Shown here in pieces: positions 28,517-62,356 of a stretch of DNA of 64,000 nucleotides. This DNA is from a virus. Position 1 is the stretch's first letter. The number at the start of each line of letters is the position of its first letter. A model generated the notes under the pieces. The model was not told the DNA's origin and made no database searches. It saw only the letters and a list, made by a program, of their open reading frames with translations. Both the position numbers and the translations under genes were made by a program. The stretch spans positions 32,001 to 96,000 of IMG/VR virus record IMGVR_UViG_3300046163_000090, one strand, 5' to 3'.

Positions 28517-29407
28517 ATGGCAAAGATATTCTCTGTTGAGAAATTATCTATTAATGGCGATAATATTCGCCTTAAATCGTCAGGCGCTGACAAGTTTGAA
28601 ATTACAGACTCGAATGACAGCGTCCTTATGAGTAAAGCTTCCATTGAAACCGATGTTGACAGCCTTAACTCTCAAGACTCCACAAACCTCGCCTCAGTTA
28701 ACTCTTCGATTGAAAGTTTGTCTACTCTTGAAGCTGCTGACGTATCCGCATTAGATGCTGACGTTCTTAGCCTTAACGCTCAAGACTCCACAAACCTCGC
28801 CGCAGTTAACTCTTCGATTGAAAGTTTGTCTACTCTTGAAGCTAATGACGTATCCGCATTAGATGCTGACGTTCTTAGCCTTAACGCTCAAGACTCCACA
28901 AACCTCGCCGCAGTTAACTCTTCGATTGAAAGTTTGTCTACTCTTGAAGCTAATGACGTATCCGCATTAGATGCTGACGTTCTTAGCCTTAACGCTCAAG
29001 ACTCCACAAACCTCGCCGCAGTTAACTCTTCGATTGAAAGTTTGTCTACTCTTGAAGCTAATGACGTATCCGCATTAGATGCTGACGTTCTTAGCCTTAA
29101 CACTCAAGACTCCGCAAACCTCGCCACAGTTAACTCTTCGATTGCAAGCATAGCTAGTTTGGTTGGTGATAATGATGTGGTTGCGATATCTACGGATCTT
29201 CTTACATCAGACAACGATTCTAAAACAATTAGTTTTGGTCGTACTTTTGATTCTGCTCCTACAGTTACAGCATCTATGCAAGCTGGAGCAACAGATCCAA
29301 TTATTGGAGTTCAAATCAGTGCTATCAGCACAACTGAATGTACTCTTCAGTTCTCCGATGATATTCCTAACGGAAATTATAAAGTTAAAATCTTAGCTTC
29401 CATATAA
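28517..29407 (+). CDS. Fibre-like protein: 36-aa coiled-coil repeats plus C-terminal H-type-lectin-like beta domain
   Basis: About 4.5 copies of SLNAQDSTNLAAVNSSIESLSTLEANDVSALDADVL, then ISFGRTFDSAPTVTAS. It has its own upstream motif and a downstream terminator. Confidence 0.65.
   Translation: MAKIFSVEKLSINGDNIRLKSSGADKFEITDSNDSVLMSKASIETDVDSLNSQDSTNLASVNSSIESLSTLEAADVSALDADVLSLNAQDSTNLAAVNSSIESLSTLEANDVSALDADVLSLNAQDSTNLAAVNSSIESLSTLEANDVSALDADVLSLNAQDSTNLAAVNSSIESLSTLEANDVSALDADVLSLNTQDSANLATVNSSIASIASLVGDNDVVAISTDLLTSDNDSKTISFGRTFDSAPTVTASMQAGATDPIIGVQISAISTTECTLQFSDDIPNGNYKVKILASI
28661..29144 (+). repeat. 108-bp coding tandem repeat (~4.5 copies)
   Basis: Units start at 28661, 28769, 28877, 28985 and 29093 and are near-identical. 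Confidence 0.95.
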
Positions 29408-31532: not shown

Positions 31533-32642
31533 TTACACTACGATACCGAAAAGAGCTCGGTTGTCAAGAATCATACGACCTTCTTCAACAGATCCATAGT
31601 ATCCGATCTTGGACTGGCGAACACTGTATTGATCGTCAGCAACCAAGGAGAACTCGGAACCTGTTTCAGAATCGGTAGCAACTGCACGAAGCATAGATTC
31701 AACACGTTTGTCAAGACCAATAACGATTTCGTGATCAGCATCAGCAAATCCTACACCAGTCGAAACACGGTTAGCATCGCTGTCAAGAGCTTCGAAAAGC
31801 TTATTGAAGCGTTGACCTTTACCCATTTCTTGAAGCTCCATGATGTTAATACCATAGAATTCAGGAATACCACCGTTAGAGTAAACAGCTTCACGCATGC
31901 TATCAGTAGCAGTGATGTCTGTGTTATTTCCACGAGTGTTAATTGGGTTATAAGCCATTTCACGAAGGCCTTGTACAACTTCAGGAGAAACGATCAAGTC
32001 AGTTACTCCACGACCACCGATACCGCCTTCAGGTGTTCCACCTGTCCACGCAGTGTTGATACGTTTACCAAGAGTAAGAAGCTTGTTAAAGTCGTCAAGG
32101 ATTAGACGAGATTGCCCAACGTTAGCAGCAACATTGATGTGTGACCTGCCTTTGGTTGAAGCTTCTGCGAGAGCACCAAGCATAAGAGTTGCAGAGTTGC
32201 GCTCTTGCTTAAGTAAAACTTCTTGCGCTACGCGAGTAAAAGATTTACTGATAACATCCATACGGGAGCGTTGAGCATAACGCTTATCGAAATCAACAGC
32301 ACTATCAAGGCGATAGGTTGTGAATTTCATTTCACCACCGATAGGTGTTACAGTGTTTGTAGGAAGACCTCCAGGCACTGCTTGACTCCATACTGTGACA
32401 TAATCTTCGTCAGTAATGTCATAGTAAAGATCCATGGGAATGCTTGGGCTTTCATCCGCACTAAATTGAAAGTTTGAGAAAAGATTACTCAAGGTTGGAG
32501 CTTGATTAATAACCTTTGCGAGAACTGGTCCAATAAATTCTGCTAGAGCAACTTGAGCTTCGTATGCGACATCACGATTTTTGGATGCCATGGCTTTTAC
32601 TAGCTCGACTTGTTCTTCTGTTCTTTTTAATGTAATTTTCAT
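31533..32642 (-). CDS. Major capsid protein (HK97 fold)
   Basis: 369 aa, at the end of the portal-protease/scaffold-decoration order, with biased codon usage, DLIVSPE and FYGINIME motifs and a strong terminator. Confidence 0.85.
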   Translation of the reverse strand: MKITLKRTEEQVELVKAMASKNRDVAYEAQVALAEFIGPVLAKVINQAPTLSNLFSNFQFSADESPSIPMDLYYDITDEDYVTVWSQAVPGGLPTNTVTPIGGEMKFTTYRLDSAVDFDKRYAQRSRMDVISKSFTRVAQEVLLKQERNSATLMLGALAEASTKGRSHINVAANVGQSRLILDDFNKLLTLGKRINTAWTGGTPEGGIGGRGVTDLIVSPEVVQGLREMAYNPINTRGNNTDITATDSMREAVYSNGGIPEFYGINIMELQEMGKGQRFNKLFEALDSDANRVSTGVGFADADHEIVIGLDKRVESMLRAVATDSETGSEFSLVADDQYSVRQSKIGYYGSVEEGRMILDNRALFGIVV

Positions 32643-51773: not shown

Positions 51774-54365
51774 TTAACATAATTCTATAGGAAAGATTGC
51801 TGGCAAGCTGTCGCAGTTAGTACTTACAACGGGTTCTGTAGGTGATGGAGTTAAGCTCATCGACGTGCTGGGGGTAATTTGTGGGGTTTTTGTTGGAGTG
51901 CATGTGATAGAGGGGGTAAGGGTCATTGACATGGTTAATGAAGGGGTAGCTGTTTGGGTATGAGTTGAGCTTGGAGTTATTGATTTTGTTGGGGTAGGAG
52001 AAGGTGTTTCTGTAGGTGTTGTAGAAGTTGAATTCGTTGGGGTTTGGGTGACTGATGGTGTTACGGTTTTAGTTTGAGTTTGAGTTTGTGTCGGGGTTGA
52101 GGTAATTGACACTATAACACTAATAGCTTTTATTGTTGCATTAGCATCATGGTTATGTTGCAAGGAATTTTTTAGATCAATTATTCCTGGATTATCTAAT
52201 GAGCTAATAACATTGACTTCTTCTACAGGTAAACCTTCGTCTATTATTACTTCTTGGTTGATGTTAAATTTAGCTTGACTTTCAGTAGATACAGTTAGGA
52301 AAGTTTCCCCTTGATTTGCTGGAGATATTATGTGAGAAACTAATCCAAAATTAGAATCCTCAGGGTTATAAGGTTCAGCCTCATCATAATTAACTTCATA
52401 ACCCATGTCTTCTAGGAAGCCTATACTGATCTTACTTAATGGGTTGTAGTTTCCATTTTCAGACCATCCAGCCATAAGCTCATGCTCCAGACCTGGATGA
52501 AATACTCCACCAATTAATCTATCGTTAACAGATATTCCATTCAAGAATCCTTCTTCTGGGTGAGAATGTGCCGTGCCTTGTCCCCCGTCATCTTCTGTAG
52601 GTATTCCAGATAACTCTGCGACATTGTGGCCTAATGGCTCTAAATAATCTTTATATGCTTGAAAAGCATGTTGTCCAGTATAATAAAATTTATCTACCCC
52701 ATCTTCGACATATTTAACTACAGGTTCTCCAGCAATAGTGCTATTTTCGCTTAACGTAAATCTACCTATCCCAAGTAAATGTCCAACTTCGTGTAGAGAT
52801 ACATAGTATAATTCACTAAAACCAGCATCCCCTACATTATCTCTCTTGCTTTCAAGGTGTACTGTGTTTAATATTAACCTACCACTGATTGGGAAAAATG
52901 ATCCAAAATTTAGAGATCCCATAAAATGAGATATAGATGCGCCACCTAAAATATTAGGTGCCATAGTGTCATATTCAACGCCAACCTCTAGTTTCCAGTT
53001 TGAAAATGGTTTACTTACAAGAACTCTATCCCATTTATCAACTGCAGCCTGAATGGTTTCTCTGTAAGAAGGATCATTAAAGCTTGGATCCTGAGAAATG
53101 TTATCGATAGAAAATTCTATATCTTGATCTGGATTTGAGAAAAAAGTTAGCCTTGTTGCAGATGGAGTAATAGTTGGGGTTTGAGTATTTGTTTGAGTAA
53201 TCGAAGGGGTAACAGTAGGTGTTAAAGTATTTGTGTGTGTTGGGGTCGCTGTAAGACTTGGGCTTGAGCTTTGAGTATTTGTTTGGGTAATCGAAGGGGT
53301 TGCTGTGGGTGTTTGAGATATACTTTGAGTAAAAGAAGGGGTAACAGTAGGTGTTAAAGTATTAGTCTGCGTTGGAGTTATTGTAGCTCCCACTGTCGAA
53401 CTTTGAGTATTCGTTTGGGTAATTGAAGGAGTTGCTGTGGCTGTGAGAGTATTTGTGTGTGTTGGGGTCGCTGTAAGACTTGGGCTTGCGCTTTGAGTAT
53501 TTGTTTGGGTAATCGAAGGGGTTGCTGTGGATGTTTGAGATGTGCTTTGAGTAAAAGAAGGGGTAACCGTAGGCGTTAAAGTATTAGTCTGCGTTGGAGT
53601 TATCGTAGCTCCCACTGTCGAACTCTGAGTATTTGTTTGAGTGATTGAAAAAGTTGGGGTAGTTGATGGGGTAAAAGAGCTAGTTATCGTTGCCGTTACT
53701 TGTGGCGATTTTGATGGGGTTACTGAAATTAATGGAGTACTACTAGATGGAGTTACAGAAGGTAAAATTAAACTGCTTGTAGGGGTCGGCGAAGGATTCG
53801 GAATACCTCTAACTTGTTTCACTATTGCTCCAGCTTTATGGGTATAATTTAGTGGACTATCTAGAATTAAAGAGCCTATATCCACTACTGTTCGATGTTC
53901 TTCTATACTAGTCCCTGGATCAATAACTATAAAATTTCCTACATTAAATTCAATTTGATTTGTTACTTCAATAGCTGAGCCTCCAGAATCGACATCTAAA
54001 GTAAGATTGCCATCAGCAAAGAATTTATGAGCAGATTGTAAATCTATCGTTGAGCAATTTATTTCAGCTCGATAAACAGATTGCGAAAATGTTGCACTAA
54101 AGACTCCTTCATCTAAAATAGACTCATTTACTATGTCAGACAAAGGTTTGATTGTAGCATGATATTTTGATTTTTCATCAATATCACATATAGGATCTTC
54201 AGTATCTACTATATAATTTAATTCAAAAGGGCTTTGAAAGTTATGTTCTAAAGCTTCATCAACATACCATACAATTTTTTCTTCAGCTTCATTAACTATA
54301 AAATGATAATCACATGATATCGTTTGAATTTTGTTTATTGTGGCTCGGTAATTGCATTTGCTCAT
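51774..54365 (-). CDS. Leishmanolysin-like (M8) zinc metalloprotease flanked by mucin-like Thr/Pro/Ser repeats
   Basis: LHEVGHLLGIG, EDDGGQGTAHSHPEE, HELMAG (Met-turn) and PLSKISIGFLEDMGYEVNY, with two long T/P/S tracts. Confidence 0.85.
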   Translation of the reverse strand: MSKCNYRATINKIQTISCDYHFIVNEAEEKIVWYVDEALEHNFQSPFELNYIVDTEDPICDIDEKSKYHATIKPLSDIVNESILDEGVFSATFSQSVYRAEINCSTIDLQSAHKFFADGNLTLDVDSGGSAIEVTNQIEFNVGNFIVIDPGTSIEEHRTVVDIGSLILDSPLNYTHKAGAIVKQVRGIPNPSPTPTSSLILPSVTPSSSTPLISVTPSKSPQVTATITSSFTPSTTPTFSITQTNTQSSTVGATITPTQTNTLTPTVTPSFTQSTSQTSTATPSITQTNTQSASPSLTATPTHTNTLTATATPSITQTNTQSSTVGATITPTQTNTLTPTVTPSFTQSISQTPTATPSITQTNTQSSSPSLTATPTHTNTLTPTVTPSITQTNTQTPTITPSATRLTFFSNPDQDIEFSIDNISQDPSFNDPSYRETIQAAVDKWDRVLVSKPFSNWKLEVGVEYDTMAPNILGGASISHFMGSLNFGSFFPISGRLILNTVHLESKRDNVGDAGFSELYYVSLHEVGHLLGIGRFTLSENSTIAGEPVVKYVEDGVDKFYYTGQHAFQAYKDYLEPLGHNVAELSGIPTEDDGGQGTAHSHPEEGFLNGISVNDRLIGGVFHPGLEHELMAGWSENGNYNPLSKISIGFLEDMGYEVNYDEAEPYNPEDSNFGLVSHIISPANQGETFLTVSTESQAKFNINQEVIIDEGLPVEEVNVISSLDNPGIIDLKNSLQHNHDANATIKAISVIVSITSTPTQTQTQTKTVTPSVTQTPTNSTSTTPTETPSPTPTKSITPSSTHTQTATPSLTMSMTLTPSITCTPTKTPQITPSTSMSLTPSPTEPVVSTNCDSLPAIFPIELC
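53160..53660 (-). repeat. Coding repeats of the Thr/Pro/Ser tract (includes a 222-bp duplication)
   Basis: Matching blocks at 53227/53449 and 53361/53583. Confidence 0.8.
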
Positions 54366-58285: not shown

Positions 58286-58467
58286 TTACTGTATATTTAC
58301 ACTGATTTTAGGCCGCCGATTTTTTTTGATTAAGCAATAATTTGTATATTTTGAATTGTCAGGGGATATTGAGAAATACCACCCCCCGCCACTATGTCAA
58401 GCTCTAATGATGATTTTTTTTTGAGAAATGGGTGGGTTAATTATATAAAACTTTTTTTCTTTTTTGC

Positions 58468-58496
58468 TTGCAATTAGCTTTCTAATATGCTACCTT
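58468..58496 (+). promoter_or_regulatory. Sigma70-like early promoter
   Basis: TTGCAA-17nt-TACCTT, ATG 5 nt downstream. Confidence 0.75.
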
Positions 58497-58501
58497 TAGG
58501 T

Positions 58502-58687
58502 ATGTTTAAATTAAATGATATAGTACGTGTCAAATATGGCACACACAAGGGTAAAACCTTTCAAGTCGTGGGCTTCGCTCGCAAAGATAGCCTCGGCAAG
58601 TTAATTACTTGCAAGTTGTATCGTTCTCAGTATCGCTTTAACTTCATGCCTTGGCAAATCGAAGTTAACCCTTTACTTGCAAAATAA
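58502..58687 (+). CDS. Small KOW/SH3-like hypothetical protein (start re-called)
   Basis: MFKLNDIVRVKYGTHKGKTFQV, with the ATG directly after the -10 box. Confidence 0.65.
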   Translation: MFKLNDIVRVKYGTHKGKTFQVVGFARKDSLGKLITCKLYRSQYRFNFMPWQIEVNPLLAK

Positions 58688-58699
58688 ATCACTTTGTGC

Positions 58700-58728
58700 T
58701 TGCAATTCACTAAAAAATTTCTTAGAGT
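58700..58728 (+). promoter_or_regulatory. Sigma70-like early promoter
   Basis: TTGCAA-17nt-TAGAGT, ATG 8 nt downstream. Confidence 0.75.
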
Positions 58729-58736
58729 ATACTTAT

Positions 58737-58925
58737 ATGACAAAGACAACAAAATTCAAAAAGGGTGATGTCCTAATCTCACGAGACAAAAAAGTCTTCC
58801 AATTTATCCAAGCTATCGAACATGAAGATCTCGGTACTATCGCAATGGTTCGCCCGTATCGCACCAATCGCAAGGTTGGCATCCGTTTTGAGGATGTAAG
58901 AATTCATCCACTTTTTACAAAATAA
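58737..58925 (+). CDS. Small SH3-like hypothetical protein (start re-called)
   Basis: MTKTTKFKKGDVL...; resembles the previous gene (LG..I, PL..K end). Confidence 0.65.
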   Translation: MTKTTKFKKGDVLISRDKKVFQFIQAIEHEDLGTIAMVRPYRTNRKVGIRFEDVRIHPLFTK

Positions 58926-58937
58926 TTATCTTTTTTC

Positions 58938-58966
58938 TTGCAATTAACTAAAAAATTTCTTAAAGT
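58938..58966 (+). promoter_or_regulatory. Sigma70-like early promoter
   Basis: TTGCAA-17nt-TAAAGT, ATG 6 nt downstream. Confidence 0.75.
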
Positions 58967-58972
58967 AATACT

Positions 58973-59215
58973 ATGATAAACAACAATAACACACTCACAC
59001 AAGTCAGGAAACAATTAGACTCCAAGCTCGATCTTGGGCTCGCACTCTCTAAGGCAGAAGGCAATCTAAACTTTTTGGCTCAGCAATCAAATTCTAATGA
59101 TTCAGAAATTGGAATCACTGAAGGCATGGCAATCATGGACTCTTTGCACGCAGTACAACAAGCACGCAAGGCATGGCAAGACATTCTGCACAATGAAGTT
59201 GCAGATAGAAAATAA
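58973..59215 (+). CDS. Hypothetical protein
   Basis: 80-aa helical ORF directly after its promoter. Confidence 0.7.
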   Translation: MINNNNTLTQVRKQLDSKLDLGLALSKAEGNLNFLAQQSNSNDSEIGITEGMAIMDSLHAVQQARKAWQDILHNEVADRK

Positions 59216-59218
59216 AGC

Positions 59219-59246
59219 TTGACATCATTTTAGTATTAGCCATAAT
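59219..59246 (+). promoter_or_regulatory. Sigma70-like promoter
   Basis: TTGACA-16nt-CATAAT, ATG 6 nt downstream. Confidence 0.7.
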
Positions 59247-59252
59247 AGAGAC

Positions 59253-59312
59253 ATGACATTCATAATAATAGGACTGATAGCATTCACAATAGGAGCATTA
59301 CAAGGAATATGA
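59253..59312 (+). CDS. 19-aa hydrophobic microprotein (not in ORF track)
   Basis: MTFIIIGLIAFTIGALQGI*. The ATG is at the leaderless position and the TGA overlaps the next ATG (ATGA). Confidence 0.55.
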   Translation: MTFIIIGLIAFTIGALQGI

Positions 59313-59617
59313 GAAAAGTAACACAACAAATAAAACAAGCCTTTGACAATGGGCAAAAGCTAAAAGTAAACAACACCAAGACAGACGGAAAGACCGTTTG
59401 GCTACATGGTAACGCGATTGTCAAACGCGATCCTGACGGGTTAGTGCGTTGGTCGCTCGCAGGTTGGAATACATCAACCACACGCGAACGCGTCAATGGT
59501 ATAGCAAACGCGGGCGTTTGTCAAGTAGATTTTGAACCCGTCTTAAATGGTGAAATAATTGACTCATCCGATTGGTTTGCTAGCAACCAAAAGTTGCCCG
59601 ATCCTCTCGTGTGGTAA
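59309..59617 (+). CDS. Phage hypothetical protein
   Basis: MRK.......AF...LHGN.I...GW...TT.ER.N pattern, recalled from phage early regions but not searched. Confidence 0.72.
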   Translation: MRKVTQQIKQAFDNGQKLKVNNTKTDGKTVWLHGNAIVKRDPDGLVRWSLAGWNTSTTRERVNGIANAGVCQVDFEPVLNGEIIDSSDWFASNQKLPDPLVW

Positions 59618-59646
59618 GTTGGCACGAAACCTGTCCCTAACTTCCC

Positions 59647-59713
59647 TAAGTTGCTACCTATCAGCGACTTAGGGAAGCCTGGCTGCCATAAGTACTTGGT
59701 AATCAATGAGTTG
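59647..59713 (+). repeat. 67-bp tripartite palindromic element, copy 1
   Basis: TAAGTTGCTACCTATCAGCGACTTA + GGGAAGCCTGGCTGCCA + TAAGTACTTGGTAATCAATGAGTTG. Confidence 0.9.
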
Positions 59714-59725
59714 TACAACAACTGA

Positions 59726-59914
59726 GGCCCGCCCGTAGTAGAACGATTCTATTTGTCGACTACGGTACCAGGCCCGCCCGTAGTAGAACGATTCTATTTG
59801 TCGACTACGGTACCAGGCCCGCCCGTAGTAGAACGATTCTATTTGTCGACTACGGTACCAGGCCCGCCCGTAGTAGAACGATTCTATTTGTCGACTACGG
59901 TACCAGGCCCGCCC
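59726..59914 (+). repeat. 45-bp tandem array A (4 perfect copies plus a partial)
   Basis: Unit GGCCCGCCCGTAGTAGAACGATTCTATTTGTCGACTACGGTACCA. Confidence 0.97.
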
Positions 59915-59984
59915 TGGGTATGGTATTGTTATTTGAGGCCCGCAAAAAAACTTTGTTTTTGTGAATAACTTAAGTGCTTTTTTC

Positions 59985-60013
59985 TTGCAATTAGCTTATG
60001 CCTATGCTAGGTT
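59985..60013 (+). promoter_or_regulatory. Sigma70-like early promoter
   Basis: TTGCAA-17nt-TAGGTT (TG extended), ATG 8 nt downstream. Confidence 0.75.
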
Positions 60014-60021
60014 ATACTTAT

Positions 60022-60195
60022 ATGACAAACGAAATTCAAACACATCTCACAAAATTAGGAATCGACAAGTTCATCGAAGACAATGAACTTCAGCTTGTGG
60101 TCTGCCTTCATGCTGATCATATGCTTTGGGAATGCCCAGGTGGTCACCTGTGGAATATTCAAATGATAAAAGATGCCGCAGATAAAAGTTTATAA
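60022..60195 (+). CDS. Hypothetical protein (start re-called)
   Basis: MTNEIQTHL..., with the ATG following the promoter. Confidence 0.6.
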   Translation: MTNEIQTHLTKLGIDKFIEDNELQLVVCLHADHMLWECPGGHLWNIQMIKDAADKSL

Positions 60196-60210
60196 TTAGC
60201 CTTTTTTTGC

Positions 60211-60239
60211 TTGCAATAAAACCATTAAACTGCTAACTT
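60211..60239 (+). promoter_or_regulatory. Sigma70-like early promoter
   Basis: TTGCAA-17nt-TAACTT, ATG 8 nt downstream. Confidence 0.75.
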
Positions 60240-60247
60240 ATACTTAT

Positions 60248-60448
60248 ATGACAGATAATGACTCACTCGCCCGTACTGCTCACGCCTTCGGTATCACTGA
60301 TGTTGAATTCCAAGCTCAACAAAAAGAGCTTGCGCGCCTCGCTCGCCTCGAAAAGATAATCGCTGACATCAGGAATAGTGACGAATCTGCCGAGATGCCC
60401 GAAGTGCATCGCAATCATGAAGAACCAAGCTTTGACTTATTCAACTAA
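60248..60448 (+). CDS. Hypothetical protein
   Basis: 66-aa ORF after its promoter. Confidence 0.7.
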   Translation: MTDNDSLARTAHAFGITDVEFQAQQKELARLARLEKIIADIRNSDESAEMPEVHRNHEEPSFDLFN

Positions 60449-60470
60449 TAACAATAAACATTATAACACT

Positions 60471-60656
60471 ATGAAAGACACCCAACACAAAGGAACACTA
60501 GCAAAAGTTAATATTGTCGATGCAAAGACAGGCGAAACCGTTCAAGAGAATGTGATGATGCAGGTTGAAGAATGCAAAACAATAGACCAAATAAATAAAG
60601 AGTTGGCAATGTTTTTCTTGCCAAGACGCTTTGAATTGGTAGAATGGGTAAAATAG
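60471..60656 (+). CDS. Hypothetical protein (start re-called at MKDTQ)
   Basis: The re-called start removes the overlap with the preceding gene. Confidence 0.6.
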   Translation: MKDTQHKGTLAKVNIVDAKTGETVQENVMMQVEECKTIDQINKELAMFFLPRRFELVEWVK

Positions 60657-60668
60657 AAAGGAATTAAA

Positions 60669-60896
60669 ATGTCAGATAACACATACAATGGATGGGCAAA
60701 TTGGGCAACTTGGAACGTCGCCCTTTGGTTAGGAAACGATGAAGGCTTGTATAGGCTTTCCCGCAGGTTCGTGAGTTACAAGGATCTTGCTGACGCTCTT
60801 GAGGAAGTGGGCACCCTCAGCACTCCTGACGGAGCAAGCTACAAGGATGAAGATCTTGACACCTATGCGCTTGATGAATGGCTTATGGACGAATAA
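60669..60896 (+). CDS. Phage hypothetical protein (YNGW.N..TW.V.LW type)
   Basis: YNGWANWATWNVALWLGNDEGLY motif, with AAAGGA SD upstream. Confidence 0.75.
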   Translation: MSDNTYNGWANWATWNVALWLGNDEGLYRLSRRFVSYKDLADALEEVGTLSTPDGASYKDEDLDTYALDEWLMDE

Positions 60897-60900
60897 TCCA

Positions 60901-60967
60901 TAAGTCGTTGATTATTAGGGGTTTAGGCGAGCCAGGCTGCCATAAGTACTTGGTAATCAGTGAATTA
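60901..60967 (+). repeat. 67-bp tripartite palindromic element, copy 2
   Basis: TAAGTCGTTGATTATTAGGGGTTTA + GGCGAGCCAGGCTGCCA + TAAGTACTTGGTAATCAGTGAATTA. Confidence 0.9.
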
Positions 60968-60979
60968 TAAAACTCATAA

Positions 60980-61144
60980 GGCCCGCCCGTAGTATAACTG
61001 CGCTATTTGTCGACTACGGCACCAGGCCCGCCCGTAGTATAACTGCGCTATTTGTCGACTACGGCACCAGGCCCGCCCGTAGTATAACTGCGCTATTTGT
61101 CGACTACGGCACCAGGCCCGCCCGTAGTATAACTGCGCTATTTG
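60980..61144 (+). repeat. 45-bp tandem array B (3 perfect copies plus 30 bp)
   Basis: Unit GGCCCGCCCGTAGTATAACTGCGCTATTTGTCGACTACGGCACCA. Confidence 0.97.
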
Positions 61145-61171
61145 AGGTCTATAAAAAAAACGAAAAAAAGC

Positions 61172-61200
61172 TTGCAATTAGTTTCTGACTTTGCTAGATT
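61172..61200 (+). promoter_or_regulatory. Sigma70-like early promoter
   Basis: TTGCAA-17nt-TAGATT, ATG 6 nt downstream. Confidence 0.75.
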
Positions 61201-61206
61201 ACTTAT

Positions 61207-61398
61207 ATGACTAAAAAAGAAATGCTCACCGAAATTACAACACTTCGCAAAGCTCTTCAAAGCTCTGCTGATTTCACCCCTACTGATCGCATAGTAATCC
61301 GTAACGCGATTGGCGATCTTCAAGACAAGATTGATCTCCTCGACTTTCAAGAGTACGAGGATATTGATTATGGATACCATGCCCAGTACGACTTATAA
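61207..61398 (+). CDS. Hypothetical protein
   Basis: 63-aa helical ORF after its promoter. Confidence 0.7.
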   Translation: MTKKEMLTEITTLRKALQSSADFTPTDRIVIRNAIGDLQDKIDLLDFQEYEDIDYGYHAQYDL

Positions 61399-61403
61399 TA
61401 AAC

Positions 61404-61607
61404 ATGAAATACCTACTTACTAAATCAGACGACGCACATATAATCATTGCACAAGTCGATCACTCATTCAAGAAAAGATCGCCACATGAGTTCTTCGTTA
61501 GTCGAGACTTTTTAAATGTCAATGTTAAAAATGGAAATTTTACTGACATTACCGACAGGGTAGATTGGGATGGCAAAGTTTGGATACTAACAGAAGATAT
61601 GACATAA
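61404..61607 (+). CDS. Hypothetical protein
   Basis: 67 aa; its stop codon is the first TAA of repeat element 3. Confidence 0.65.
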   Translation: MKYLLTKSDDAHIIIAQVDHSFKKRSPHEFFVSRDFLNVNVKNGNFTDITDRVDWDGKVWILTEDMT

Positions 61608-61671
61608 GTCTTTGATAATCAAGGGCTTAGGCCCGCCAGGCCGCCCTAAGTCGTTGACATTCAGCTACTTA
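61605..61671 (+). repeat. 67-bp tripartite palindromic element, copy 3
   Basis: TAAGTCTTTGATAATCAAGGGCTTA + GGCCCGCCAGGCCGCCC + TAAGTCGTTGACATTCAGCTACTTA. Confidence 0.9.
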
Positions 61672-61726
61672 CAACAAAAATACATAGAGACACCATATGT
61701 CTCTGGGTATGTGTTATACTGTAGGT

Positions 61727-62053
61727 ATGATTACAATAGAACACATTGACGACCAAACTTTCAACGCCACCGTAGAGTGGGACATGTACCTCATCGAGGT
61801 CGAGGGTACAGTATGGACTGAGCAGGAAGATAACCTGTGGGGTGACCAGGTCGAATCAGTTTCGACCATCGCCCATTTTGACGCAGTGACCGATATGAAG
61901 GTGTCAAGCAAAATGACTGGTGATGAAGTTGAGGTGCTAAACCTAGACTTCGCCGAGCTAGTCGTTCACCAGCTCAAGGAAGCTATCTGTGAGGAGGTCT
62001 ACTCAGAGGAGTGTCAAGTAGATTATTCGCCATACTATCATGATATGGCGTAA
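61727..62053 (+). CDS. Acidic hypothetical protein (start re-called at MITIEH)
   Basis: Extended -10 TGTTATACT (61712-61720) 6 nt upstream; the stop is the first TAA of element 4. Confidence 0.7.
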   Translation: MITIEHIDDQTFNATVEWDMYLIEVEGTVWTEQEDNLWGDQVESVSTIAHFDAVTDMKVSSKMTGDEVEVLNLDFAELVVHQLKEAICEEVYSEECQVDYSPYYHDMA

Positions 62054-62117
62054 GTCGTTGGCTGCCAGTAACTTAGGGCAGCCAGGCTGCCATAAGCCAC
62101 TAATAATAAGCAACTTA
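62051..62117 (+). repeat. 67-bp tripartite palindromic element, copy 4
   Basis: TAAGTCGTTGGCTGCCAGTAACTTA + GGGCAGCCAGGCTGCCA + TAAGCCACTAATAATAAGCAACTTA. Confidence 0.9.
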
Positions 62118-62170
62118 TGACATTTCCTTCTTGGCTCGCGGAGCTGATCCCTTTTAGGTTTGGCTATTTG

Positions 62171-62356
62171 CTATTTGACCTTTTCGAGCTTAATTGGGCG
62201 ATCAACAAAATATATGTAATCCTGTTTTACTCTTCTGCCCGCGAGCTTAGCTAATTGTAAAGCCTCGCTTTCTCTTCTAACTTCGTCAACCATTTTGCCA
62301 AAAGCAAACACTTGAAACCATTCTTTGAAATTTGGATTTTTTCTTACACTTATCAT
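62171..62356 (-). CDS. Hypothetical protein
   Basis: 61-aa ORF, last of a minus-strand run. Confidence 0.65.
   Translation of the reverse strand: MISVRKNPNFKEWFQVFAFGKMVDEVRRESEALQLAKLAGRRVKQDYIYFVDRPIKLEKVK

Follow-up and report, generated by a model that had tools for sequence, protein, structure and literature searches.

Tandem arrays of a 45-bp hairpin unit at putative PeSL-like cassette junctions of an uncultured marine phage

The promoter-early stem-loop (PeSL) regulatory cassettes of T4-type phages (Arbiol et al. 2010, PMC2839356; Comeau et al. 2014, PMC4122927) are the described systems with which the locus reported here is best compared. According to their authors, PeSL stem-loops terminate as strongly as rrnB T1 (PMC2839356), and junctions of this type are reported to be recombination hot spots (PMC2839356; PMC4122927). 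A second comparison is offered by type III antitoxins, described as 2 to 5.5 near-identical copies of a 34-45-nt repeat arranged in tandem, with a terminator downstream; units of CptI measure 45 nt, and the expansion of a short repeat into a pseudo-ToxI array is reported to have allowed a phage to escape ToxIN (PMC5086642, PMC4627078). RNA anti-CRISPRs, or solitary CRISPR-repeat units, have also been described as non-coding, hairpin-containing repeat units of phages (PMC10651486).

The arrays analysed in this work lie in a window of 64,000 nucleotides (positions 32,001 to 96,000 of the 117,477-base IMG/VR record IMGVR_UViG_3300046163_000090; coordinates below are those of the window). The source is an uncultured marine tailed phage, and the arrays are found in its early, hyperplastic region. 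The tail genes are siphovirus-like (J-like tail tip, minor tail proteins) and the large terminase is only about 25% identical to that of any isolate. Among the neighbouring products of 61-180 aa, 16 out of 18 have no Pfam family above the cut-off; the early region also encodes rIIA and rIIB homologues and a 102-aa protein whose homologues in T7-like phages are encoded at 1-2 kb from the left end. A virion RNA polymerase with hairpin promoters was considered and discarded, since the giant proteins carry Laminin_G, Calx-beta and RCC1 domains; a 4252-aa product gave no Pfam match. Junctions between genes follow a common plan: gene stop, double-palindrome element with a GC-rich linker, A-tract, sigma-70-like promoter and next small gene. 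Judging from the sequence, the two arrays (A and B, Table 1) appear to occupy the stem-loop slot of such a PeSL-like cassette junction.

Both arrays are internally perfect, as claimed in a sequence-only reading of this DNA: Tandem Repeats Finder reported a period of 45 with 4.2 copies for A (100% matches, no indels) and the same period with 3.7 copies for B (100% matches). That reading had placed the differences between the two units within an 8-nt segment, with one base outside it, and the consensus units indeed differ at columns 17, 21, 22, 23, 24 and 42, five of them inside the segment and one elsewhere. The 7-bp outer stem enclosing the segment was recovered by RNA folding in every unit. 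The description of the arrays as GC-rich islands is equally accurate (units of 53% and 58% G+C against 35.6% for the record), and modules A and B share, as stated, the same ending, namely a T-rich hexamer and three bases followed by an A-run. The unit core is matched 8 times in the forward and 0 times in the reverse orientation, with 0 matches in the backwards control, so that chance is excluded. One reading frame per strand runs uninterrupted through all unit variants. The arrays had also been said to pack restriction sites, which holds for SalI (7 of the 10 sites in the record) and KpnI (4 of 8) but not for HaeIII, with just 10 of 89. A role as restriction decoy was not borne out, as the site types of the arrays are not avoided elsewhere, bar one tetranucleotide that is missing from the arrays.

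Table 1. Features of the two array modules and of the neighbouring junctions (window coordinates).
Feature	Position	Strand	Basis
Junction element 1, first hairpin	59643..59675	+	12-14 bp stem (RNA fold); hairpin-scan match at 59646
Junction element 1, second box	59689..59705	+	one of two copies in the record; second arm decayed
Array A, 4.2 perfect copies of the 45-bp hairpin unit, A-type variable patch	59725..59914	+	Tandem Repeats Finder; seawater contigs
Module A tail, degenerate 31-nt unit head pairing with the last linker to form a hairpin	59897..59943	+	fold; hairpin scan at 59900
A-run, T-rich spacer and sigma-70-like promoter after A	59944..60024	+	likeness to six other gene starts
Junction element 2	60901..60959	+	box 1 pairs with box 2 as one long hairpin enclosing the GC-rich linker (fold)
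Array B, 3 full units and one truncated after the T-rich hexamer, B-type variable patch	60979..61144	+	Tandem Repeats Finder; seawater contigs
Module B tail, A-runs and sigma-70-like promoter	61145..61209	+	read from sequence
Junction element 3, two hairpins and GC-rich linker, without array	61603..61672	+	hairpin scan, 61605 and 61647
Junction element 4 and two-copy remnant of the T-rich hexamer cluster	62050..62177	+	hairpin scan; Tandem Repeats Finder row 62163-62177

The first hairpin of junction element 1 stands directly 3' of the 102-aa early gene (stop at 59617), and element 4 marks the convergent end of the rightward early block. The 17-nt second box has 2 copies in the whole 117,477-base record, at window positions 59689 and 60943, and the distance from its start to the start of the array is 36 nt in both A and B. 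Hence the equal spacing asserted for the two arrays stands, while the figure given for it, exactly 12 nt past a 67-bp element, depends on the element end that is chosen. In a self-BLAST, 59669-59879 aligns with 60923-61133 ungapped, at 85.8% over 211 bp, and because of this ungapped alignment we regard half an element plus its array as one duplicated module. The proposal of a composite of element and array thus gains support, both from this colinear duplication in the window and from the recurrence of the module in three related contigs, behind four upstream genes. A further cassette is duplicated from element to element at 61635-62096. In element 2, compared with the related contig L164, pairing is kept in 6 of 7 first-arm changes through G-U, A-U or G-C exchanges; by our own count, this excess of pairing-preserving changes on the sense strand has a p of about 0.05.

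A promoter had been predicted behind each array. An A-run and a -35-like/-10-like pair can be read there by eye (59985-59990 and 60008-60013 after A, with the start codon of a 65-aa gene at 60022; 61172-61177 and 61195-61200 after B, with the start codon of a 63-aa gene at 61207), whereas a consensus promoter scan flagged the promoters at 58706 and 59219 and neither of these two. The A-run with the conserved hexamer pair recurs upstream of seven gene starts in 58467-61209, the start codon following the -10-like hexamer by about 8 nt and without a Shine-Dalgarno site. The module B tail is 95% identical to that of L164, above the identity of the flanking genes. Two ideas on the T-rich hexamer were dropped: that it is a promoter element, since no position upstream of 120 ORFs is enriched for it, and that its clusters are tied to the 61-aa gene family, since homologues in relatives have no adjacent clusters.

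Perfect repeats exceeding a short read are prone to mis-assembly. Contigs from two independent seawater runs, belonging to two other studies, match the unit, and the two junctions of each array, letter for letter; the same contig sets hold unit-only pieces at 2 to 4.6 times the depth of the flanks. Since independent seawater assemblies carry identical units and both junctions, the arrays are not assembly artefacts, and three further assemblies bear such arrays. An artefact is refuted as to existence, the exact copy number being less certain. One contig joint in X3 runs from 60946 to 61667, the latter lying in the other copy of the duplicated cassette, and this copy explains the joint, which we had considered as a deletion variant. 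Protein-coding repeats would be suggested by the frame that stays open on each strand, but these frames have no preceding ATG start or ribosome site, and the listed ORFs spanning the arrays begin at TTG within the repeat or within a promoter and lie on different strands in A and B. Taken together, an artefact or a coding repeat is extremely improbable. Five read-length contigs from RNA libraries map to this region (at 59990-60140 and 60369-60519 in X15, and at 59300-59514 in X17); being contigs they are uninformative on transcription, and their positions, none of which is on an array, have no bearing either way on whether the arrays are transcribed.

Four further arrays, of 2-3.7 copies, were found in the three related metagenome contigs (L162, L163 and L164), giving an overall range of 2 to 4.2 copies across six arrays. 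All six have the same orientation and sit between a junction element and an A-tract with promoter, a slot that is observed directly in each case. As the arrays follow four different upstream genes, the module is a property of the junction rather than of a gene. L163, with flanks 98-99% identical, has 3 units instead of the 4 (4.2 copies) of our array A, as well as an additional cassette, about 590 bp long, that separates the element from array A, and L162 bears two arrays, of 3 and 2 copies. The arrays are heritable and vary in copy number, and A-type and B-type patches are each retained across genomes.

Comparison of the units reveals an uneven distribution of change. Of the 18 full units, 17 agree completely in stem, linker and half of the loop; the single change breaks a pair, so that the covariation proposed as a test of the stem was not seen. 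The other part of that test, independent variation of the 8-nt segment, was met with in L164, whose array, homologous to B, carries three different patches while the other 36 columns are identical between its units. Between A and B, differences fall in 5 of 9 segment columns against 1 of 36 others (p = 0.0006), and two units within the single L164 array differ in 4 of 9 segment columns against 0 of 36 (p = 0.0009). Our array B and that of L164 have 0 changes at 35 constant columns although the flanking genes are 10-19% divergent (P about 0.001-0.03); the constant columns are conserved beyond the flanks. The unit consists of 36 to 38 conserved columns and a hypervariable patch of six. This combination of near-total constraint with a small hypervariable patch usually marks a recognition surface with a specificity determinant, and it makes the arrays a defined, short and easily synthesised object.

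Tandem Repeats Finder detected no such unit in 35 more distant relatives, whose gene content and order differ widely, and a covariance model run over 554,685 bases found no diverged unit in any relative. Because of the latter result, only short likenesses in outer stem and linker suggest a descent of the unit from the junction element, a further point against the reading preferred below. A similarity search of 59300-61700 against 50,697 phage records gave no match, and two specific pattern scans of IMG/VR gave 0 matches; a third scan, with a 14-base core, gave 118 single chance matches and is uninformative. Such a narrow distribution (our record and 3 metagenome contigs, none in the 35 relatives or by the IMG/VR patterns) is what would be seen if the arrays were a functionless by-product, arising recently by slippage or unequal recombination between short GC-rich direct repeats and hitch-hiking with mobile junctions. 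The variation from 2 to 4.2 copies agrees with this idea, perfect internal identity fits a recent amplification, and PeSL-type junctions are, from what their authors report, recombination hot spots; moreover L147, the nearest relative without an array, passes from the element directly to the A-tract and promoter. On the other hand, the differences are clustered in six adjacent columns (p = 0.0006 for A versus B; p = 0.0009 within L164), patch types are kept across genomes with the constant part undiverged despite a 10-19% difference in flanking genes, and identical units recur in 14 seawater DNA runs from 11 studies. We consider a by-product unlikely.

Our preferred reading, which we hold tentatively, is that the arrays are an amplified stem-loop module that would stop read-through and protect the upstream mRNA. 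Mechanistically, each array would have arisen when a single GC-rich stem-loop unit of 45 bp was amplified in tandem to 2 to 4 copies. The upstream early mRNA would carry the array at its 3' end, where it would fold into a row of stable hairpins, the last of them followed by a U-rich tract. This row could halt or attenuate read-through into the next promoter and, in addition, shield the 3' end of the upstream mRNA. Identical units would be gained or lost by slippage or by unequal recombination among them, and recombination at the junction elements would carry the entire module from cassette to cassette.

Several observations are consistent with such a role, among them the common slot behind four different genes, the pairing kept in element 2, the unit number and extra cassette of L163 and the conservation of the constant columns. 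In 16 of the 35 relatives, a canonical GC hairpin with a T-run stands in the same slot behind the 102-aa gene, five of these being formed by the element's own linker; by the same strict rule, our own junction after this gene has none. Terminator-like sites number 11 in the region, compared to 3.6 +/- 2.2 in shuffles, and all three full B units were flagged as such. Single units fold at -16.0 to -20.5 kcal/mol. Module A as a whole folds better than its shuffles (z of -6.6, with 0 of 100 as good), and in its tail a terminator-like hairpin (-17.4 kcal/mol, several G-U pairs) precedes a U-rich stretch and the beginning of another unit. Module B, in turn, does not fold better than shuffles (z of -1.16, with 30 of 200 as good), and its terminator-like hairpin is small and weak, at about -5 kcal/mol. 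Against the preferred reading stands the fact that the promoters behind A and B went unflagged in the consensus scan. In addition, a plain terminator or stabiliser should tolerate compensatory change, and the observed invariance fits sequence-specific recognition better. Across the junction family, 159 hairpins, not deduplicated, hold 175 G-U against 136 A-C, so that wobble on the sense strand is not clearly favoured.

Recognition of this kind could take place on DNA. The constant 36 to 38 columns would then be double-stranded sites for a phage or host protein, or single-strand hairpins, multiplied by the array, and the signal may be tied to the genome axis, in replication priming or arrest, recombination at cassette junctions, or DNA packaging or entry. 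Strict sequence invariance, without covariation, in the stem, linker and half of the loop agrees with this, as does the attachment of the arrays to a junction box at a fixed offset of 36 nt. Furthermore, among 223 distinct boxes it is the first arm, more often than the second, that lies closer to the family consensus, whatever the gene context (50:15 between rightward genes, 38:6 between leftward ones, 38:13 convergent and 17:2 divergent), a polarity independent of gene direction that argues against a purely sense-RNA role of the junction element. In our record and three complete relatives of 194-214 kb, the exact box is confined to 5-8 kb, where it occurs 23 times forward versus 2 times reverse relative to the early genes, and within an element the spacing from box to box is 41-42 or 52-53 bp, close to four or five helical turns. 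The 45-bp period, however, is not a whole number of turns, and Pfam and PADLOC revealed no DNA-binding gene among the 18 neighbouring products. All six arrays lie between rightward genes, so that their polarity is inseparable from transcription. Finally, the perfect box palindrome has only 9 scattered single matches, in unrelated MAGs, among 185,579 prokaryote genomes, and hence no host site family emerges. With these points on both sides, a DNA-level signal seems rather unlikely to us. Whatever its role, the fixed polarity of the box gives a handle on how cassettes move and flip.

Alternatively, the array could be an RNA decoy transcribed from strong early promoters, cut or bound as units of about 45 nt, with the six variable columns setting its specificity; this we judge quite improbable. 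By analogy with the capture of a toxin by type III antitoxin repeats, and with equally little confidence, the units might capture a host defence protein, A-type, B-type and L164 arrays being directed at different variants. If true, it would represent a natural, genome-encoded, diversifying RNA counter-defence of an abundant marine phage, grafted onto mobile cassette junctions. The period of 45, the 2 to 4.2 near-identical copies and the terminator-like end agree with this idea, the arrays are in the early region together with the rIIA and rIIB homologues, and near-total constraint with a small variable patch and two types per genome would fit co-evolution with more than one target. Against it, the exact 23-base core has 0 matches in 185,579 species genomes, in a search limited to exact matches, and no CRISPR repeat containing the unit core was found there by exact search either. 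Rfam has nothing for the arrays: there were 0 matches at gathering score in the window, and in 59600-61200 two unrelated matches (E of 4.9 and 9.5), neither on an array. No toxin gene follows the arrays, the downstream genes encoding 65 and 63 aa, and PADLOC recognised 0 of 18 neighbours; a ToxN family search of the record gave 0 matches, although the control genomes were silent too. The GC-rich units are also devoid of the A-rich cleavage motifs reported for ToxN, ToxN-Bt and AbiQ. As for a small RNA directed at the phage's own genes, we rejected it after finding no complementary match of at least 12 nt to either loop elsewhere in the record.

The arrays had also been proposed to act in replication or DNA entry, either as origin iterons or as a T5-like injection-stop region. 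They consist of direct repeats and are non-coding DNA next to early genes, the homologues of the 102-aa protein map 1-2 kb from the left end of T7-like phages, and the junction boxes of the relatives lie within 2-14 kb of a record end; a preprint on two-step injection in T5, with 27 mentions of palindromes, describes the stop signal as a cis-acting site. Those record ends, however, near a repeat-rich and strain-variable region, may be mere assembly breaks. Within 59-63 kb and in the scanned larger products, no gene for an initiator, helicase or primase could be recognised. A period of 45 bp is long for iterons. The missing initiator and the atypical period both speak against iterons, and since the arrays are absent from 35 relatives sharing the region they are not an essential origin or entry signal of the group. 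We regard a role of this class as very unlikely.

The comparison with known systems helps to place these arrays. REP/BIME extragenic palindromes and the tandem terminators of bacterial operons form stable palindrome clusters after genes, with strain-variable copy number, and such clusters are generally credited with protein binding and with the protection of mRNA 3' ends. They are, however, host elements, usually in alternating orientation and imperfect, whereas the units described here are head-to-tail, perfect, phage-borne and provided with a hypervariable loop patch. In another register, the unit resembles the CRISPR-repeat units as they have been reported, with a constant part of 36-37 nt containing an internal palindrome and alternating with a short variable part, which here is only 8-9 nt. 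Type III arrays (ToxI, CptI, TenpI), as far as they are described in the sources cited above, share the tandem near-identical repeats, in a matching length and copy range, and the pseudo-ToxI of phage TE offers a precedent; they differ in that our arrays have no toxin gene downstream, no matching host repeat by exact search, and GC-rich units.

The PeSL cassettes share more features. In both cases a stem-loop is combined with an AT-rich upstream region carrying a sigma-70-like promoter, a putative one in our junctions, the GC-rich stem-loops are in terminator position, the composite borders small genes without known function within a hyperplastic region, and cassettes are gained or lost at the motifs between close relatives (here, the L163 insert and the duplication at 61635-62096). 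Unlike the PeSLs, the junctions analysed here come from a phage that is not T4-type (siphovirus-like tail genes, distant terminase), their stem-loop part consists of two palindromes, with an 11-nt arm that is conserved and polar, and their start codons lie within about 8 nt of the promoter without the Shine-Dalgarno site reported for PeSLs. Given the non-T4-type phage and the missing Shine-Dalgarno site, we would say that these junctions may work like a PeSL rather than that they are members of the described set. Promoter/stem-loop junctions, known from T4-type coliphages and vibriophages, would thereby extend to an unrelated, widespread group of marine phages, and the arrays allow tests of how phage early regions insulate their cassettes, or of whether phages use repeat RNAs against host defences. 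The 2010 account (PMC2839356), in whose text the word 'tandem' is absent, does not describe tandem amplification of the stem-loop; the arrays reported here would thus add a new state, in which the stem-loop part is amplified into perfect arrays whose copy number changes between near-identical genomes.

The two tandem arrays described in the sequence-only reading, A and B, were recovered as perfect repeats of a 45-bp hairpin unit. The stretch carrying them is present in 14 seawater DNA runs from 11 studies, and contigs from two DNA runs of two further studies reach both sides of both arrays with zero differing letters. Unit-only pieces in those two runs are about 2 to 4.6 times as deep as the flanks, as expected for a short repeat under k-mer assembly and roughly matching 3 to 4 copies. 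Together with three related contigs, these results confirm and extend the arrays as first observed. Units of A and B differ at columns 17, 21–24 and 42. Both arrays start 36 nt past the start of a 17-nt box, of which the record holds only two copies, and the A and B modules (half a junction element plus the array) are colinear, with 85.8% identity over 211 bp. This alignment, and the slot shared by all six arrays known here, support the composite element-plus-array module that had been proposed. Each unit is predicted to fold as RNA into a 7-bp outer stem with a 19-nt loop (-16.0 to -20.5 kcal/mol), and each array has two pairing registers because its arms alternate and are also able to pair over the intervening GC-rich linker. 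The unit loop holds one T-rich hexamer, and each module terminates in one.

The record itself (117,477 bases, rated 84% complete, 35.6% G+C) encodes siphovirus-type tail proteins, including a J-like tip within a 2347-aa product and minor tail proteins, a large terminase with at most ~25% identity to that of any isolate, homologues of PhoH, rIIA and rIIB, and giant adhesin-like proteins with Laminin_G, Calx-beta and RCC1 domains. The window contains no tRNA and no Rfam family. Two structural genes also contain in-frame coding repeats: a tail-fibre-like gene has 4.5 copies of 108 bp with 97% matches (window 28661–29148), and an 863-aa gene has 2.1 copies of 222 bp with 90% matches (window 53180–53656). 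At the record's left end, inside a 5331-aa adhesin-like gene, the 563 bp at record positions 1–563 recur at 1592–2150 with 96% identity. The HpaII/MspI tetranucleotide is absent from all 117,477 bases, against ~80 expected by a Markov estimate, which suggests that a host restriction system selects strongly against it; it is present in the element linkers of relatives, where the record's own linkers carry a one-base-longer variant instead.

The arrays lie in a block of small rightward genes (58467 to 62120), most of which have their own A-run and sigma-70-like promoter, as read by eye. The 102-aa product encoded immediately upstream of array A matches Pfam Kyano_Gp96; since its homologues in T7-like phages lie 1–2 kb from the left genome end, we take the surroundings to be an early region. 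Start codons here fall ~8 nt past the -10-like hexamer of the gene's own promoter, with no Shine-Dalgarno site (window 58467–61209, and downstream of the 102-aa gene in L127–L161, the IMG/VR relative loci), and the early-gene mRNAs would be leaderless or nearly so. Relatives conserve the motif that surrounds the start codon. Behind a promoter at 59219, a 19-codon open frame read by eye (59253–59312) encodes a hydrophobic peptide, its stop overlapping the start codon of the 102-aa gene.

Thirty-five IMG/VR loci with the 102-aa protein (75–85% identity) have PhoH in common, along with many small genes whose order and orientation are shuffled, and all of them lack a 45-bp array. A covariance model built on the unit was run over 554,685 bases, which comprised the whole record with the window, these 35 loci, three metagenome contigs and the ends of three complete relatives; it found nothing beyond the 18 full and 2 truncated units already known. 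The relatives do possess the junction element, in which a GC-rich linker separates two (sometimes three) imperfect 25-bp palindromes, or boxes; it follows a gene and is itself followed by an A-tract and promoter. Across 86–117 kb of the record, L127–L164 and L177–L179, the first palindrome arm is much better conserved than the second, with one genomic polarity whatever the direction of the flanking genes. Sixteen of the 35 have a canonical GC hairpin with a T-run no more than 220 nt past the 102-aa gene, and the element linker forms this hairpin in five of those 16. In three of the 35, palindrome and linker together are repeated in tandem as 52-bp arrays, an imperfect counterpart, in relatives without 45-bp arrays, of the record's own. 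Clusters of four to nine T-rich hexamers, one per locus and always on the early-gene strand, occur in 16 of the 35 where the rightward block reaches its convergent end, immediately after the 52-bp arrays where these are present. They adjoin the 3' end of a leftward gene, past the last junction element. The hexamer was ruled out as a promoter motif.

Coordinates of the arrays and T-rich clusters in the record and its relatives
Feature	Location	Properties	Source
Array A	window 59725–59914	45 bp, 4.2 copies, 100% matches	Tandem Repeats Finder
Array B	window 60979–61144	45 bp, 3.7 copies, 100% matches	Tandem Repeats Finder
52-bp arrays, terminator-like linker	L149 10219–10340; L136 8294–8427; L138 8877–9010	2.4–2.7 copies, 74–80% matches	
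T-rich clusters, relatives	L130 9240–9305; L139 10880–10970; L149 10376–10448; L136 8450–8516		
T-rich clusters, own record	L174 5900–5980; window 62163–62177		

One search of metagenome contigs for the unit's constant part returned three with arrays. L163, with flanks 98–99% identical to ours, has three A-type units against four in array A; at 1776–2366 it also carries an extra small-gene cassette (~590 bp), which separates the array A module from the element that follows the 102-aa gene. L162 holds two A-type arrays, one with 3 units and one with 2, which follow two other genes, with one variant of the patch (the variable loop columns) and one unit whose stem change breaks a pair. L164 aligns to module B, with flanking genes 90.3% and 81.3% identical and the array 92.8%; of its 12 differences from array B, 9 are in the patch and the other 3 in column 42, and its four units have three different patches.

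Over eight distinct units, only columns 12, 16, 17, 21–24 and 42 vary, and columns 18–20 within the patch are invariant. Differences cluster significantly in the patch, both between A and B (p = 0.0006) and between two units of one L164 array (p = 0.0009), while zero changes at the 35 constant columns are unlikely given the flank divergence (P ~0.03 to 0.0007). Judged from these alignments, the unit is either constrained or very recently spread, the patch is free or diversifying, and array copy number is labile. The unit combines strict constraint with a hypervariable patch.

A stem-loop module that stops read-through is the reading we tentatively prefer. Module A is predicted to end in a hairpin of -17.4 kcal/mol that includes several G-U pairs, with a U-rich tract after it, and the three full B units are predicted to be weak terminator-like sites. 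Module A folds better than its shuffles (z -6.6), whereas module B does not (z -1.16). A structural RNA should also permit compensated stem changes and free linkers, and the near-total invariance of the unit points instead to sequence-specific recognition. As counted over 223 distinct boxes, the first arm is closer to the consensus than the second in every gene context (38 vs 6 between leftward genes). In the record and three complete relatives of 194–214 kb, exact copies of the box are confined to 5–8 kb and point one way in 23 cases against 2. Boxes are spaced 41–42 or 52–53 bp apart. The polarity ignores the direction of transcription, and these box features speak for the junction element that carries the arrays acting at the level of DNA or of a single strand. 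On the other hand, between the record's element 2 and its L164 homologue a 15-bp sense-strand hairpin is kept through 6 of 7 substitutions by G-U exchanges, making the evidence mixed, and both DNA and RNA levels may be relevant. RNA libraries yielded few read-length contigs, located off the arrays. For this reason, and because of the module B fold, the unit invariance and the box polarity, we do not rate the terminator reading higher.

That the arrays are RNA decoys resembling type III antitoxin arrays seems improbable to us, although the two have period, range of copy number, repeat identity and early setting in common, as well as a predicted terminator-like end. Such antitoxins are described as tandem arrays of 2 to 5.5 near-identical repeats, each 34–45 nt long, with a terminator at their end, the CptI unit being 45 nt long, and phage TE as escaping ToxIN by expanding a short repeat into a pseudo-ToxI (PMC5086642, PMC4627078). 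However, no toxin gene was recognised downstream of the arrays, Rfam gives no match, an exact search of 185,579 prokaryote genomes with the unit core had 0 matches, and the units are GC-rich, without the A-rich cut sites that have been reported.

Returning to the terminator reading, all six arrays have a single orientation, with the junction element on one side and an A-tract and promoter on the other; four different genes lie upstream of them and at least two downstream. The promoter-early stem-loop (PeSL) cassettes of T4-type phages are described as combining a sigma-70-like early promoter, an AT-rich upstream region and a GC-rich stem-loop (PMC4122927, PMC2839356), the stem-loop being shown by the authors to terminate as strongly as rrnB T1 (PMC2839356); these cassettes border small genes without known function, and cassettes are gained and lost through them (PMC4122927, PMC2839356). 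Cassette change is also observed at the junctions here, in the L163 insertion and in a cassette duplicated within the record. The latter, 462 bp with a 118-aa gene, is repeated from element to element at 97% identity (window 61635–62096 and record 96671–97132, the second copy corresponding to window 64671–65132, past the window edge). The junction plan matches that of PeSLs, with the arrays in the position of the stem-loop, and by this analogy they would be a variant, not previously known, of a known type of phage regulatory junction.
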